Assembly: GCF_003018255.1 (NCBI RefSeq)
Contig: NZ_CP027440.1
Source of the DNA: Escherichia coli
GTDB taxonomy: Bacteria > Pseudomonadota > Gammaproteobacteria > Enterobacterales > Enterobacteriaceae
DNA: 64,000 bases
Direction: 5' to 3' (one strand)
Shown piece after piece: positions 1 through 6,065 of the stretch (positions are counted from its first letter, which is position 1; the number at the start of each line of letters is the position of its first letter). The position numbers and the translations under genes are program-made. Under the pieces are notes generated by a model. The model did not search any database and had not been told where the DNA came from. It was given only the letters and a program-made list of their open reading frames with translations.

Positions 1-959
1 CGCTGACCGGTTTACCCGATAACTTTACCGTACAGGCATTTGTGATCCTGCTTTCCGGCGGCATTTTTTGCCTAAGCTCGTGGATTGGTATCAACAACGG
101 TTTGCAACGTCTAAGCAAAATGGTTGGCTGGGGCGCGTTCCTGCTGCCATTACTGGTGCTGATTGTCGGTCCAACCGAATTTATTACCAACAGCATCATC
201 AATGCCATCGGCCTGACCACGCAAAACTTCCTGCAAATGAGCTTATTCACCGATCCGCTTGGCGATGGTTCATTTACCCGCAACTGGACCGTTTTCTACT
301 GGCTGTGGTGGATCTCATACACGCCTGGCGTAGCAATGTTTGTCACCCGCGTTTCCCGCGGTCGTAAGATTAAAGAAGTTATCTGGGGACTGATCCTCGG
401 CAGCACCGTCGGTTGCTGGTTCTTCTTCGGCGTAATGGAAAGCTATGCCATTCACCAGTTTATCAATGGCGTAATCAACGTCCCACAGGTGCTGGAAACA
501 CTGGGCGGCGAGACAGCTGTGCAGCAAGTTCTGATGTCGTTGCCAGCCGGTAAATTGTTCCTCGCCGCATACCTGGGCGTGATGATTATTTTCCTTGCCT
601 CGCATATGGATGCGGTGGCCTACACCATGGCGGCAACCAGTACGCGTAATCTCCAGGAAGGTGACGATCCTGACCGTGGGCTGCGTCTTTTCTGGTGCGT
701 GGTAATTACCCTGATCCCGCTTTCAATTCTTTTCACTGGCGCGTCGCTGGAAACGATGAAAACCACCGTCGTACTCACAGCCCTTCCGTTCCTCGTCATT
801 TTACTGGTGAAAGTCGGCGGATTTATTCGCTGGCTGAAACAGGATTACGCCGACATTCCGGCTCATCATGTTGAACATTATCTCCCGCAGACACCGGTTG
901 AAGTCCTGGAAAAAACGCCAGTGCTCCCTGCGGGAACCGTATTCAAAGGCGACAACTGA
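1..959 (+). CDS. yeaV: BCCT-family transporter YeaV, C-terminal part (5' end lies outside window)
   Basis: Open frame runs from window edge (codon phase starting at nt 3) to stop at 959; hydrophobic TM-rich translation matching betT/caiT-like YeaV; followed by yeaW-yeaX as in E. coli. Confidence 0.85.
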
Positions 960-990
960 GCGCCATCATCCTAACGATAAAGGTATCCCT

Positions 991-2115
991 ATGAGCAATC
1001 TGAGCCCTGACTTTGTACTACCCGAAAATTTTTGCGCTAACCCGCAAGAGGCGTGGACCATTCCTGCCCGTTTTTATACCGATCAGAACGCCTTTGAACA
1101 CGAAAAAGAGAACGTCTTCGCCAAAAGCTGGATTTGCGTCGCTCACAGCAGCGAACTGGCGAATGCCAATGATTATGTGACGCGTGAGATCATTGGCGAA
1201 AGCATTGTGCTGGTACGCGGTCGTGATAAGGTTTTGCGCGCGTTCTATAACGTGTGTCCGCACCGTGGTCATCAGTTGTTGAGCGGCGAAGGGAAAGCGA
1301 AAAATGTGATTACCTGCCCGTATCACGCATGGGCATTCAAACTCGATGGCAACCTGGCCCATGCACGTAACTGCGAAAACGTCGCCAATTTCGATAGCGA
1401 CAAAGCGCAACTGGTTCCGGTGCGTCTGGAAGAATATGCCGGATTCGTCTTCATCAACATGGACCCTAACGCCACCAGCGTAGAAGATCAGTTACCCGGT
1501 CTGGGCGCGAAAGTGCTGGAAGCCTGCCCGGAAGTCCACGATCTGAAACTGGCGGCCCGCTTTACCACCCGCACGCCTGCCAACTGGAAGAACATTGTCG
1601 ATAACTATCTCGAGTGCTATCACTGTGGTCCGGCGCATCCAGGTTTCTCCGACTCCGTACAGGTTGATCGTTACTGGCACACCATGCACGGTAACTGGAC
1701 GCTGCAATACGGTTTCGCCAAACCGTCAGAACAGTCTTTCAAATTCGAAGAGGGCACGGATGCGGCATTCCACGGTTTCTGGCTGTGGCCGTGCACGATG
1801 CTTAACGTCACACCGATCAAAGGGATGATGACGGTCATTTATGAATTCCCGGTGGATTCTGAAACTACCCTGCAAAACTACGATATTTACTTCACCAATG
1901 AAGAGTTAACCGACGAGCAAAAATCGCTGATTGAGTGGTATCGCGATGTGTTCCGTCCGGAAGATTTACGTCTGGTTGAAAGCGTACAGAAAGGGCTGAA
2001 ATCGCGTGGCTATCGTGGTCAGGGGCGCATCATGGCCGACAGTAGCGGTAGCGGAATTTCCGAACATGGTATCGCCCATTTCCATAATCTGCTGGCGCAG
2101 GTGTTTAAGGACTAA
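991..2115 (+). CDS. yeaW: Rieske-type carnitine monooxygenase oxygenase subunit (CntA homolog), 374 aa
   Basis: ATG at 991 inside longer ORF 868..2115; Rieske motif CPHRGHQ...CPYHAW in translation; length matches YeaW. Confidence 0.92.
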   Translation: MSNLSPDFVLPENFCANPQEAWTIPARFYTDQNAFEHEKENVFAKSWICVAHSSELANANDYVTREIIGESIVLVRGRDKVLRAFYNVCPHRGHQLLSGEGKAKNVITCPYHAWAFKLDGNLAHARNCENVANFDSDKAQLVPVRLEEYAGFVFINMDPNATSVEDQLPGLGAKVLEACPEVHDLKLAARFTTRTPANWKNIVDNYLECYHCGPAHPGFSDSVQVDRYWHTMHGNWTLQYGFAKPSEQSFKFEEGTDAAFHGFWLWPCTMLNVTPIKGMMTVIYEFPVDSETTLQNYDIYFTNEELTDEQKSLIEWYRDVFRPEDLRLVESVQKGLKSRGYRGQGRIMADSSGSGISEHGIAHFHNLLAQVFKD

Positions 2116-2170
2116 TGACATCGGCGGCGGTATTTTCCGCCGCTGGGCTGATTTTTGATGGAGTACAGCA

Positions 2171-3136
2171 ATGTCAGACTATCAAATGTTTGAAGTACAG
2201 GTGAGTCAGGTGGAACCGCTTACCGAACAGGTGAAACGCTTCACGCTGGTGGCAACCGATGGCAAACCGCTGCCTGCGTTCACCGGAGGAAGTCACATCA
2301 TAGTGCAGATGAGCGATGGTGATAACCAGTACAGCAATGCGTATTCACTACTGAGTTCACCGCATAACACCTCTAGTTATCAGATTGCCGTTCGACTGGA
2401 GGAAAACTCGCGCGGCGGTTCCCGCTTTTTGCATCAGCAGGTAAAAGTGGGCGATCGGTTAACGATTTCAACGCCTAATAACCTGTTTGCGCTAATTCCC
2501 TCGGCCAGAAAGCATCTGTTTATCGCGGGCGGTATTGGTATCACCCCTTTCCTGTCGCACCTGGCAGAGTTGCAATACAGCGACGTCGACTGGCAGCTAC
2601 ATTACTGCACGCGAAATCCAGAAAGTTGCGCATTTCGTGATGAGCTAGTCCAGCATCCACAGGCTGAGAAAGTTCACTTACATCACTCATCAACCGGAAC
2701 ACGACTGGAATTAGCGCGATTATTGGCGGATATCGAACCTGGCACACATGTTTATACCTGTGGCCCCGAGGCGCTAAATGAAGCGGTAAGAAGTGAAGCT
2801 GCGCGTCTGAACATCGCCGCCGATACGCTGCACTTTGAGCAATTTGCTATCGAAGACAAAACCGGCGATGCATTTACCCTGGTGCTTGCCCGTTCCGGAA
2901 AAGAGTTTGTGGTGCCGGAAGAGATGACTATTTTGCAGGTTATTGAAAATAATAAAGCAGCGAAAGTGGAATGTTTATGTCGTGAAGGGGTATGCGGAAC
3001 CTGCGAAACGGCAATACTGGAAGGTGAAGCTGACCATCGGGATCAGTATTTTAGCGATGAAGAGCGTGCCAGCCAGCAAAGTATGTTGATCTGTTGTTCG
3101 CGCGCGAAGGGTAAACGCCTGGTGTTGGATTTGTAG
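2171..3136 (+). CDS. yeaX: Carnitine monooxygenase reductase subunit (ferredoxin-NAD reductase with C-terminal 2Fe-2S ferredoxin domain), 321 aa
   Basis: ORF 2171..3136; C-terminal CxxGxCxxC ferredoxin motif (CREGVCGTC); adjacent to yeaW. Confidence 0.92.
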   Translation: MSDYQMFEVQVSQVEPLTEQVKRFTLVATDGKPLPAFTGGSHIIVQMSDGDNQYSNAYSLLSSPHNTSSYQIAVRLEENSRGGSRFLHQQVKVGDRLTISTPNNLFALIPSARKHLFIAGGIGITPFLSHLAELQYSDVDWQLHYCTRNPESCAFRDELVQHPQAEKVHLHHSSTGTRLELARLLADIEPGTHVYTCGPEALNEAVRSEAARLNIAADTLHFEQFAIEDKTGDAFTLVLARSGKEFVVPEEMTILQVIENNKAAKVECLCREGVCGTCETAILEGEADHRDQYFSDEERASQQSMLICCSRAKGKRLVLDL

Positions 3137-3140
3137 TTTG

Positions 3141-3177
3141 CCGAAGCCGGACTGAGCGCGCCCAGTCCGGCTTCGGA
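3141..3177. terminator. GC-rich 14-bp inverted repeat between convergent yeaX and rnd (likely bidirectional terminator)
   Basis: ccgaagccggactg ... cagtccggcttcgg palindrome directly after the yeaX stop codon. Confidence 0.5.
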
Positions 3178-3182
3178 AGATT

Positions 3183-4310
3183 TTACTGCGGATATTCCTG
3201 CAATAAATTGTGTAATGCTTCCGCCATCAGCTCACCACGCCAGCCGGAAATCAGCTCCGGCAAATTGTTCTGCGGTTTCAGTTTCCAGTGCCAGTTCAGC
3301 AGTTGGTTGATTTGCCGACGCGATGCCAGCAATTCGGCGCTGATCTTGTGCGTTTCGCTCACGTCAGTAATCAGCGACTTAATCGCTTTAAACGCTTTAC
3401 GATAACCCGGCATGTCCATCAGGTTAAGCATCGGCTGCGGTAAGGCCTCTTCCGGCAATGCCTGCGCTTTTTCCACCAGCGCCAGCAGCGTTTTACCGTG
3501 AAAGCGGATTTCGCTACCGGATAAGCCCAGGCTGTCCAGTTCGCCTAAACTTCCCGGCATATAACGCGCTACGGACCACAAATGCTCTTCACGCACGACA
3601 AAGTTCACTGCCAGATCGCGCTCCCGCGCCTTGCGCAGTCGCCAGTCGGCTAACAGTTGCAGACAGGCCAGTTGGCGTGTGCGTAACTGCCAGGCATTGG
3701 TGATATCACGCCAGGCATCTTCCGGAGCAACGACTTCCTGACGACGCATTTGCATCAGGCGGCATTCATCCAGCGCCGCAGGTAGCCAGCCGGAGGCCTC
3801 CGTTTCTACCATAAGCTTTGCGGTGATCGGTAACAGATACCAGACATCCGCCGCTGCGTATTCACACTGACGTTCGGTCAGCGGTCTGGCCAGCCAGTCG
3901 GTGCGCGATTCACTCTTGTCCAGCGTAACGCCGGAATACTCTTCCACCATGGAAGCGAAACCCCATGACATCGGGCGTCCGCAGAAGGCAGCAAGGATTT
4001 GCGTGTCAATCAAGGGTTGTGGTAATTCGCCAAAGACATTGAGGAACACTTCCAGATCTTCACTGCCCGCATGGAGAAATTTTGTGATGGACGGATCGCG
4101 CAGGATCGCTTTCAGCGGTGACCAGTCAGAGATCCCGAGGGGATCAATTAGCGCCAGATGCTCACCATCAAAAAGTTGAATTAGACCCAGTTGCGGGTAA
4201 TAGGTGCGCGTACGAACAAATTCAGTATCCAGGGCTATCGCCGGAAAGGCACGGACGGCTTCACACAAAGAAGCCAGCGCATCGTCCGTGGTAATCATTT
4301 GGTAATTCAA
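3183..4310 (-). CDS. rnd: Ribonuclease D, 375 aa
   Basis: ORF 3183..4310 minus; translation matches RNase D (3'-5' exonuclease plus HRDC domains); length exact. Confidence 0.95.
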   Translation of the reverse strand: MNYQMITTDDALASLCEAVRAFPAIALDTEFVRTRTYYPQLGLIQLFDGEHLALIDPLGISDWSPLKAILRDPSITKFLHAGSEDLEVFLNVFGELPQPLIDTQILAAFCGRPMSWGFASMVEEYSGVTLDKSESRTDWLARPLTERQCEYAAADVWYLLPITAKLMVETEASGWLPAALDECRLMQMRRQEVVAPEDAWRDITNAWQLRTRQLACLQLLADWRLRKARERDLAVNFVVREEHLWSVARYMPGSLGELDSLGLSGSEIRFHGKTLLALVEKAQALPEEALPQPMLNLMDMPGYRKAFKAIKSLITDVSETHKISAELLASRRQINQLLNWHWKLKPQNNLPELISGWRGELMAEALHNLLQEYPQ

Positions 4311-4379
4311 ATTGTATTCTCTTTAGTGGGCGTCAAAAAAAACGCCGGATTAACCGGCGTCTGACGACTGACTTAACGC

Positions 4380-6065
4380 TCAGGCTTTATTGTCCACTTT
4401 GCCGCGCGCTTCGTCACGTAATTCTCGTCGCAAAATTTTTCCGACGTTAGATTTCGGTAACTCATCACGAAACTCCACCAGCTTCGGTACTTTGTAGCCC
4501 GTGAGCTGACGGCGGCAAAAAGTCACCAGTGACTCTTCGGTAAGTGATGGATCTTTTTTCACAACGAAGATTTTCACCGCTTCGCCACTGGAGCCAGAAG
4601 GTACGCCAACAGCCGCGACTTCCTGTACGCCAGGATGCTGCATGACGACATCTTCAATCTCGTTGGGATAGACGTTAAAACCGGAAACCAGAATCATGTC
4701 TTTTTTACGATCGACAATACGCAGGAATCCTTCTTCATCCATCACCGCGATGTCGCCAGTGTGTAACCAGCCATTTTTGATGATTTCATCGGTAGCATCC
4801 GGACGCTGCCAGTAACCCAGCATCACCTGCGGTCCTTTGACACAAAGCTCACCTGGTTGACCCGGTGGTACTTCGTTGTCGTCGTCATCCACCAGTTTGG
4901 CTTCCGTCGACGGCACCGGCAAACCGATGCTACCACTATGATAATCAATATCATACGGGTTAACGCTGACCAGCGGCGCACACTCGGTCAGGCCATAACC
5001 TTCCAGCAGATACTGCCCTGTCAGTTTCACCCAACGTTCTGCCACCACTTGCTGAACAGGCATCCCACCGCCTGCGGAAAGGTGCAGACTGGAGAAATCC
5101 AGCTGCTGGAACTCTTTATTGTTCAGCAACGCATTGAATAAGGTGTTAACGCCAGTGATAGCGGTAAACGGATATTTCGCTAACTCTTTTACCAACCCTG
5201 GAATATCGCGCGGGTTAGTGATAAGCAGGTTCTGCCCACCCAGTTCGATAAACAGCAGGCAGTTAATGGTCAGTGCAAAAATGTGATAAAGCGGCAGCGC
5301 CGTCACCACCAGCTCTTTGCCCGGATGCAACAGCGGACCATAGGTCGCGTTAACCTGTTCCAGGTTCGCCAGCATATTGCGGTGAGTCAGCATCGCGCCT
5401 TTCGCCACACCAGTGGTACCGCCGGTGTATTGCAGGAAAGCTAAATCTTCCGGCACCAGTTCGGGTTTGACGTACTGCATCCGGTAGCCGTTGTGCAGGG
5501 CGCTACGAAATGAAATGGCATCTGGCAGATGGTATTTCGGCACCAGACGCTTGATGTATTTAACAACAAAATTGACTACCGTGCCTTTTGCCGTAGATAG
5601 CTGATCGCCCATACGGGTCAGAATTACGTGCTGAACGGCGGTTTTATCAACCACTTTTTCCAGAGTGTGGGCAAAGTTAGACACGATAACAATCGCCGAT
5701 GCGCCGCTATCGTTAAGCTGATGCTCAAGTTCACGCGGGGTATACAACGGGTTAACGTTTACGACAATCATCCCGGCACGCAAAATGCCAAACAGCGCCA
5801 CCGGATATTGCAATAAATTAGGCATCATCAACGCAACGCGATCGCCTTTCTTCAGTCCCAACCCTTGTTGCAAATAAGCGGCAAACGCGCGACTGCGTTC
5901 TTCCAGTTTGCGGAAGGTCATCACCTCCCCCATATTCACAAACGCGGGTTGATCGGCGTAGCGCGCGACCGACTGCTCAAACATATCTACCAGAGATTGA
6001 TAACGGTCAGGGTTGATCTCCGTCGGAACGTCCGCGGGATAACGGTTAAGCCAAACCTTCTTCAA
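4380..6065 (-). CDS. fadD: Long-chain fatty-acid CoA ligase FadD, 561 aa, TTG start
   Basis: ORF 4380..6131 minus; known N-terminus [10 protein letters not shown] begins at the TTG codon at 6063-6065; AMP-binding motif [12 protein letters not shown] present. Confidence 0.93.

Follow-up and report, generated by a model that had tools for sequence, protein, structure and literature searches.

The first 3,136 positions of a 64,000-nucleotide stretch of Escherichia coli DNA (contig NZ_CP027440.1; hereafter the window) carry, on the + strand, three reading frames in series that very probably make up the E. coli carnitine monooxygenase module yeaVWX. The stretch opens partway through yeaV, a BCCT-family transporter gene, and holds its 3' part (1..959; codons 219-536 followed by a TGA stop at 957-959). 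After a spacer of 31 nt comes yeaW, also called cntA (991..2115; 374 aa), for the oxygenase subunit of carnitine monooxygenase, and a further 55 nt separate it from yeaX, or cntB (2171..3136; 321 aa), for the reductase subunit; both are coding sequences in RefSeq. Shine-Dalgarno sequences stand 7 nt 5' of each of these two starts, AAAGG at 979..983 for yeaW (the same in all six E. coli strains compared) and GGAG at 2160..2163 for yeaX.

When positions 1-3400 of the window were used as a megablast query against 5,426 complete E. coli genomes, 5,425 of them returned a match, and the chromosome of strain JNE23-011 (NZ_AP045067.1) proved 100% identical to the region. Its RefSeq annotation names yeaV, yeaW and yeaX and starts yeaW at window position 991. 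The original prediction, an earlier reading of this DNA, had placed the same three genes at the same positions, and the open reading frames (ORFs), the Pfam matches and the annotation of the identical chromosome all agree with it. For yeaV it was right about the BCCT family, but the stretch contains only the 3' 59% of the gene (318 of 536 codons). Within positions 1-3136, the ORF list shows no + strand ORF of at least 60 aa besides the three genes. The finding is already known, since publications cover the genes as well as the mechanism of the enzyme, an orthologue's structure and the comparison of clusters; the region adds no new biology, and the value of the analysis lies in confirming the annotation, in settling the start codon of yeaW and in drawing attention to how much the module differs between E. 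coli lineages.

YeaW matches the Pfam domains Rieske (E 9.7e-24) and Ring_hydroxyl_A (E 5.6e-23). No gene for a beta small subunit lies in the 55-nt spacer that separates yeaW from yeaX, which points to an alpha-only oxygenase, and the alpha3 state of the oxygenase has been described (PMC7948474, PMC9508527). A scan of YeaW and YeaX against NCBIfam returned no CntA- or CntB-specific model at its cut-off, the best being GbcA with 154 bits versus 670. Because NCBIfam could not confirm membership, we relied instead on matches to solved structures and on a comparison of individual residues. YeaW matches Acinetobacter baumannii CntA (PDB 6y8j) with E 9e-197 and 72.7% identity over a global alignment, as against E 7e-31 for the stachydrine demethylase Stc2 (PDB 3vca). 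Using residue roles taken from three studies (PMC7948474, PMC10952381, PMC9508527), we mapped the CntA residues with a defined role onto YeaW one by one and found all 19 of 19 conserved.

The Rieske CxH...CxxH motif noticed in the original prediction is formed by the [2Fe-2S] ligands C89-P-H91 and C109-P-Y-H112 (1255..1326, + strand), which correspond to C86, H88, C106 and H109 of CntA. A second motif (1606..1638, + strand) brings together Tyr206, Glu208, Cys209, His211, Cys212 and His216 of the catalytic site, and the third iron ligand, Asp325, is encoded at 1963-1965 on the same strand, so that the 2-His-1-carboxylate site is kept in full (H211, H216 and D325, aligned to CntA H208, H213 and D323). 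Glu208, the bridging residue within the motif NYLECYHC, is the counterpart of CntA E205, whose role in electron transfer between subunits has been shown with mutants (PMC7948474). The alignment to Acinetobacter CntA that had been proposed earlier as a check on YeaW thus finds the bridging glutamate and the Rieske residues all present. The cysteine pair C209 and C212 (CntA C206 and C209) is kept as well, six residues of the substrate pocket are identical (F260, Y317, F321, Y228, N272 and Y297, aligned to CntA F258, Y315, F319, Y225, N270 and Y295), and the further pocket residues F219 and F250 are conserved in YeaW. Tyr206, equivalent to the pi-cation residue Y203 of CntA, marks clade Va, whereas clade Vb enzymes have asparagine at this position (PMC7948474). 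Group Vb, comprising the glycine betaine monooxygenase GbcA/BmoA and Stc2, shares with YeaW the Rieske centre and mononuclear iron, quaternary ammonium substrates, the Cys-x-x-Cys pair beside the iron site and a two-component organization with an FMN/2Fe-2S reductase. Apart from the asparagine, it differs in carrying out demethylation rather than cleavage to trimethylamine (TMA) (PMC7948474).

The YeaW protein encoded here has the accession WP_000067822.1 and is the same in K-12, O157:H7 and strain 21AH006. Since YeaW and YeaX of K-12 have been purified, shown to carry FMN and [2Fe-2S] in the reductase and Rieske and mononuclear iron centres in the oxygenase, and found to convert carnitine and O2 to TMA (PMC9508527), the YeaW of the window counts as experimentally characterised by virtue of its identical sequence. 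The recombinant enzyme was highly active (PMC9508527). Judged from its sequence, YeaW is the oxygenase of a CntA-type carnitine monooxygenase, an activity shown for the identical K-12 protein. The K-12 locus behind that work (Piskol et al. 2022, PMC9508527) has the same gene order and spacers, and differs in having a loop 7 bp longer between yeaX and the downstream gene rnd and a yeaV lacking 225 bp, whereas yeaV of JNE23-011 is intact at 536 aa.

YeaX has the architecture that had been ascribed to it, a flavin reductase with a C-terminal 2Fe-2S domain. Pfam finds FAD_binding_6 (residues 9-103), NAD_binding_1 (117-207) and Fer2 (240-313; E 2e-14), giving an N-terminal FMN-binding domain, an NAD-binding domain and a plant-type [2Fe-2S] ferredoxin domain at the C terminus. 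Phthalate dioxygenase reductase (PDB 2pia) matches over the full length with E 1.5e-56 and has the same domain order and the same length of 321 aa; it differs in its oxygenase partner and substrate, the oxygenase on which YeaX docks being an alpha3 assembly that lacks a beta subunit. The four cluster ligands, Cys270, Cys275, Cys278 and Cys308, are encoded at 2978..3094 (+ strand) in the pattern C-x4-C-x2-C-x29-C, following the published assignment (PMC9508527), and the residues that mutagenesis has tied to activity or docking (H221, R271, T277, E279, K313 and D320) are all present. Identity to A. baumannii CntB, the other comparison proposed earlier, is 51%. YeaX is the CntB reductase, of the phthalate-dioxygenase-reductase type and class IA. 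Compared with K-12 YeaX it is 97.5% identical (313/321), with eight substitutions (V43I, D66N, C69S, M131L, H136Y, S147T, I203N and D214N), none of which affects a functional residue: the cofactor and interface positions E77, S84, H221, C270, R271, C275, T277, C278, E279, C308, K313 and D320 are all kept. The enzymology has thus been shown for the exact YeaW sequence together with a YeaX differing at eight non-critical positions. In strain NRZ88308, yeaX is frameshifted and annotated as a pseudogene (locus L008, 3371-4335), and among the strains compared it also has the most divergent yeaV allele.

Pfam BCCT matches the YeaV fragment with E 8.6e-63, covering positions 223-485 of the 485 in the model, and because the match begins at position 223 the protein must be cut by the start of the window. 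Its score against NCBIfam NF007412, 593.8 bits, lies below the cut-off of 647 because only 305-318 residues are present in the window; the full-length protein, taken from the 100%-identical genome, reaches 1030 bits in a match that runs from end to end (1-536 of 536). The translation contains the tryptophan-rich BCCT aromatic-box segment of transmembrane helix 8 (W313 to residue 324 at 285..320, + strand, with the segment running from 282), which lines up with the corresponding WTVFYWAWWIVY segment in the solved structure of the BCCT transporter DddT. In BCCT proteins, the aromatic-box segment binds quaternary ammonium groups. YeaV is 54% identical to an A. baumannii protein annotated as a BCCT family carnitine transporter, and the CaiT carnitine/gamma-butyrobetaine antiporters are its second-closest solved relatives. 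Overexpression of yeaV depleted carnitine, among many other metabolites (PMC10971958). Taken together, these likenesses suggest that YeaV would import L-carnitine or related quaternary amines.

The start of yeaW deserves comment, because an ORF of 415 aa in frame with it begins at an ATG at position 868 and remains open to 2115. The extra 41 codons (868..990, + strand) overlap the 3' end of yeaV in another frame over 868-959. That this longer ORF is the true yeaW, with a start inside yeaV, is extremely unlikely. In this DNA it is indeed open and begins with ATG, but the start codon is the product of a lineage-specific single-nucleotide polymorphism (SNP), the other five of five E. coli strains compared having AAG instead, and in strain NRZ88308 the extension is interrupted by an in-frame TAG. 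In other genera, stops lie in frame 12 codons (Klebsiella) and 4 codons (Acinetobacter) 5' of the cntA start. Among the best 120 relatives of YeaW, the 107 full-length homologues measure 370-417 aa, and where they have additional N-terminal length it does not align to the extension; Met1 of CntA falls opposite YeaW residue 4. Position 868 is not preceded by anything like a Shine-Dalgarno sequence, in contrast to the AAAGG found 7 nt before the ATG at 991, and RefSeq places the start at 991. On the comparison of strains, with its SNP and stops, we rejected the 415-aa ORF as a real gene. Since the extension is not conserved, the earlier judgement that it is probably not translated was correct: segment 868-990 is probably untranslated, and the ORF from 868 would be an accident of this lineage. 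The SNP that creates the ATG also changes YeaV Gln507 to His, and a second difference of YeaV from K-12 is Ala519Val.

The surroundings of the module can be followed in the identical genome, where a divergent LysR-type regulator gene, dmlR, and the D-malate/tartrate dehydrogenase gene dmlA lie directly upstream of yeaV; both, like the start of yeaV and its upstream region, fall outside the window. In A. baumannii, Klebsiella pneumoniae and a Psychrobacter plasmid the order is LysR regulator, tartrate-type dehydrogenase, BCCT transporter, cntA, NAD-dependent semialdehyde dehydrogenase and cntB. Identities to the Acinetobacter and Klebsiella proteins, respectively, are 46% and 88% for DmlR, 72% and 90% for DmlA, 54% and 87% for YeaV, 74% and 91% for YeaW, and 51% and 71% for YeaX. 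The A. baumannii cluster thus resembles that of E. coli in the order regulator, malate dehydrogenase (mdh), bcct, cntA, cntB, and with dmlR and dmlA upstream in the order seen elsewhere, yeaVWX is part of a five-gene cluster that represents an incomplete version of a known catabolic pathway. In Acinetobacter that pathway has been reconstituted and leads from carnitine through malic semialdehyde and D-malate to pyruvate and CO2 (PMC11353897).

In the mechanism we propose, YeaV would bring in L-carnitine or related quaternary amines. The FMN of YeaX accepts an electron pair from NAD(P)H, and the electrons pass singly, via the plant-type [2Fe-2S] cluster, to YeaW. Within a head-to-tail alpha3 trimer of YeaW, electrons travel from the Rieske cluster of one subunit through Glu208 to the mononuclear iron of the neighbouring subunit. 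There O2 is activated and C4 of carnitine hydroxylated, with the substrate held by a pi-cation contact to Tyr206, and the hemiaminal-like product collapses to TMA and malic semialdehyde. The electron path, the hydroxylation at C4 and the release of TMA and malic semialdehyde have been described for the identical YeaW or for an orthologue (PMC9508527, PMC7948474). An unlinked aldehyde dehydrogenase may then oxidise malic semialdehyde to D-malate, which the adjacent DmlA could convert to pyruvate and CO2. GabD, 62% identical to the Acinetobacter malic semialdehyde dehydrogenase (MSA-DH), might be the substitute (PMC11353897). We infer this division of labour between an unlinked dehydrogenase and DmlA for the handling of the aldehyde product.

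E. coli K-12, BL21, DH10B and SE11 are listed as positive for conversion of carnitine to TMA (PMC6200775). Several observations nonetheless weigh against regarding the region as a carnitine-degrading operon at work in E. coli. The cluster has no malic semialdehyde dehydrogenase gene (msadh) between yeaW and yeaX, the 55-nt spacer being free of any ORF, whereas Acinetobacter, Klebsiella and Psychrobacter have it; it also lacks the acylcarnitine hydrolase gene of Acinetobacter, and both absences have already been published (PMC11353897). The E. coli strains tested (BL21, B and K-12) failed to grow on carnitine, extracts of BL21 had no detectable activity, and public expression data show little transcription of cntA (PMC11353897), so that the role in vivo is uncertain. 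YeaW/YeaX is reported to be promiscuous, accepting gamma-butyrobetaine as well and, with lower efficiency, choline and betaine (summarised in PMC5433236). TCDB still lists YeaV as uncharacterised, and metabolomics yielded many candidate substrates for it (PMC10971958). As for expression, a promoter scan of positions 1-3400 returned 4 sites versus 3.3 expected by chance, with none in either spacer, and a terminator-like hairpin stands between yeaW and yeaX.

With sites at the level of chance, no internal promoter can be claimed, and scanning the upstream sequence of yeaV in the identical genome revealed no promoter either. The earlier description of the locus as a carnitine monooxygenase operon has two parts. 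The CntAB-type module is borne out by the matches of YeaW and YeaX, while its transcription as one operon is something we infer from the short spacers, the Shine-Dalgarno sequence of each gene and the lack of promoter-like sites in the spacers: yeaV, yeaW and yeaX would be co-transcribed from a promoter upstream of the window. The hairpin, found in a terminator scan, is GC-rich with 10 pairs followed by GCUGAUUUUU (2121..2146, + strand), and has a fold energy of -27.5 kcal/mol (z -4.6). Among six E. coli strains its stem varies by a single pair, a G-U to G-C change. An analogous hairpin with a different stem sequence occurs in Klebsiella after the aldehyde dehydrogenase gene and before cntB (locus L006, 10600-10630), and in both E. 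coli and Klebsiella a GAUGGAG Shine-Dalgarno sequence follows; no hairpin was found before cntB in Acinetobacter or Psychrobacter. We considered whether the E. coli hairpin might be a scar left by the loss of msadh, and rejected this because the stems differ, the structure is absent from Acinetobacter and Psychrobacter, and homology is not established. The hairpin resembles an intrinsic terminator and may serve as a partial terminator or as a stabiliser of the mRNA; one could speculate that it lowers expression of the reductase relative to the oxygenase.

The missing msadh, kept in Klebsiella, Acinetobacter and Psychrobacter, is also an argument for a different physiological substrate. YeaW/YeaX could act in E. 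coli on gamma-butyrobetaine, the end product of the anaerobic cai pathway, rather than on carnitine. Cleavage would then give TMA and succinic semialdehyde, which GabD or Sad would convert to succinate, and since these two enzymes would suffice, the absence of a dedicated malic semialdehyde dehydrogenase would be explained. Gamma-butyrobetaine is converted by CntA and YeaW at rates similar to carnitine (PMC5433236), CntA has been crystallised with both substrates (PMC7948474), and the kinship of YeaV with the CaiT antiporters points the same way. However, dmlA and the regulator gene adjoin yeaV and are lost together with yeaVWX in ~19% of genomes, which fits a route from carnitine to D-malate, and GabD, with its 62% identity to MSA-DH, could fill the missing step of that route (PMC11353897). 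We found no in vivo substrate data for E. coli, and on balance consider gamma-butyrobetaine an unlikely answer.

A role outside catabolism, in which the module trims the intracellular pool of carnitine-type compatible solutes, is conceivable, if still somewhat improbable. It would accord with the failure of BL21, B and K-12 to grow on carnitine and has been suggested by the authors of that work for clusters without msadh or mdh (PMC11353897), and osmoprotection is common among BCCT transporters (PMC10971958). Yet growth was tested only in laboratory lineages, all of them with a 225-bp deletion at the 5' end of yeaV, and mdh, in the form of dmlA, is present in E. coli; the strong purifying selection described below fits either role. 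Neither this proposal nor the one on gamma-butyrobetaine alters what the genes encode, and a carnitine monooxygenase module remains our reading of the region.

That yeaVWX is no more than a set of decaying remnants without current function in E. coli is very unlikely, even though the locus offers signs of erosion: the block is missing from ~1,055 of 5,426 complete genomes, yeaX is frameshifted in one strain, a deletion fusion of dmlA and yeaW exists, and the N-terminally deleted yeaV of the K-12 type is flagged as a pseudogene by the annotation pipeline PGAP. Pairwise Nei-Gojobori estimates among six E. coli strains (dS, the synonymous divergence, 0.03-0.17) gave ratios of nonsynonymous to synonymous divergence (dN/dS) of 0.02-0.13 for yeaV, 0-0.05 for yeaW and 0.05-0.18 for yeaX. 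Where present, all three genes are under purifying selection, which largely refutes decay, and we rejected the pseudogene reading on this ground. The YeaW protein is moreover identical in four strains that differ by 2-3% in DNA, its catalytic residues are all intact, and the recombinant enzyme, as noted, is highly active. YeaX shows 4-11 amino-acid differences per strain pair, while YeaW is invariant across four divergent strains. The allele found in the window is rare: identity to it over positions 1-3400 reaches 99% or more in only 73 of the 5,426 genomes and lies at 97.5-98.5% in most. The fusion is represented by a 472-aa E. coli protein (P0014) that joins an isocitrate/isopropylmalate dehydrogenase domain to the Rieske and catalytic domains. 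Over 80% of its length this protein shows 99% identity to YeaW, and it seems to have arisen from a deletion spanning yeaV.

Lineages of E. coli differ strongly in whether they have the module and whether it is intact. The genomes without the block (~1,055 of 5,426, ~19%) retain only window position ~3113 onward, and include O25b:H4-ST131 MB1159, U12A and EcN_Sk. The deletion begins within dmlR and ends 24 nt short of the yeaX stop; what is left as a scar is the 3' end of dmlR, an internal dmlA fragment of 167 bp (92% identity) and the final 24 nt of yeaX (loci L003, 7652-8068, and L004, 7655-8071). About one third of the genomes that carry the block, K-12, BL21 and AB1157 among them, have the 225-bp deletion (locus L001, 3253-3477), which takes 96 bp upstream of yeaV, the ribosome-binding site, the start codon and approximately the first 43 codons, including the first transmembrane helix; the remainder are intact. 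The 225-bp deletion does not abolish yeaWX function, however, since K-12, BL21 and DH10B appear among the strains listed as making TMA from carnitine (PMC6200775). The same listing weakens the idea that laboratory strains showed no carnitine monooxygenase activity and no growth (PMC11353897) because of this deletion, and we keep that idea only as a low-probability, quantitative hypothesis. In that form it would hold that natural isolates of the window's type, with the full 536-aa YeaV and its native upstream region, take up carnitine, make TMA and possibly feed D-malate to DmlA much better than K-12, B or BL21. We regard this as unlikely; if true, the negative results in laboratory strains would underestimate the share of E. 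coli in gut TMA, and that share would differ by lineage.

Bacteria make TMA by two main routes, and carnitine monooxygenase is one of them; TMA is the precursor of trimethylamine N-oxide (TMAO), for which a link to cardiovascular disease has been described. In samples from the human gut, cntA is carried mainly by E. coli (PMC5433236). The variation among lineages described above consequently matters wherever counts of cntA are used as a proxy for the capacity to form TMA.

Downstream of yeaX, the opposite strand carries rnd (3183 onward) and fadD. The convergent ends of yeaX and rnd enclose a 14-bp perfect inverted repeat (3141..3176) that folds on either strand (-32.7 kcal/mol, z -5.3 on the + strand; -31.9 kcal/mol, z -6.3 on the - strand) and is likely to form a bidirectional transcript-end hairpin. 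Its loop is 7 bases longer in four of the five strains compared (K-12, O157:H7, 21AH006 and PK8261) and short, as here, in NRZ88308, the shorter loop in the window going with a longer perfect stem of 14 bp. An Rfam scan of positions 1-4400 (E up to 1) found no RNA family within yeaVWX, its sole match being the small RNA sroD downstream (4336-4400, - strand; 77.8 bits, E 1.3e-14), which lies in the rnd-fadD intergenic region and is cut by the end of the searched stretch. The rnd ORF itself spans 3183-4310 on the - strand and encodes 375 aa from a TTG at 4310; the RefSeq version in the identical genome is 12 nt shorter (3183-4298).

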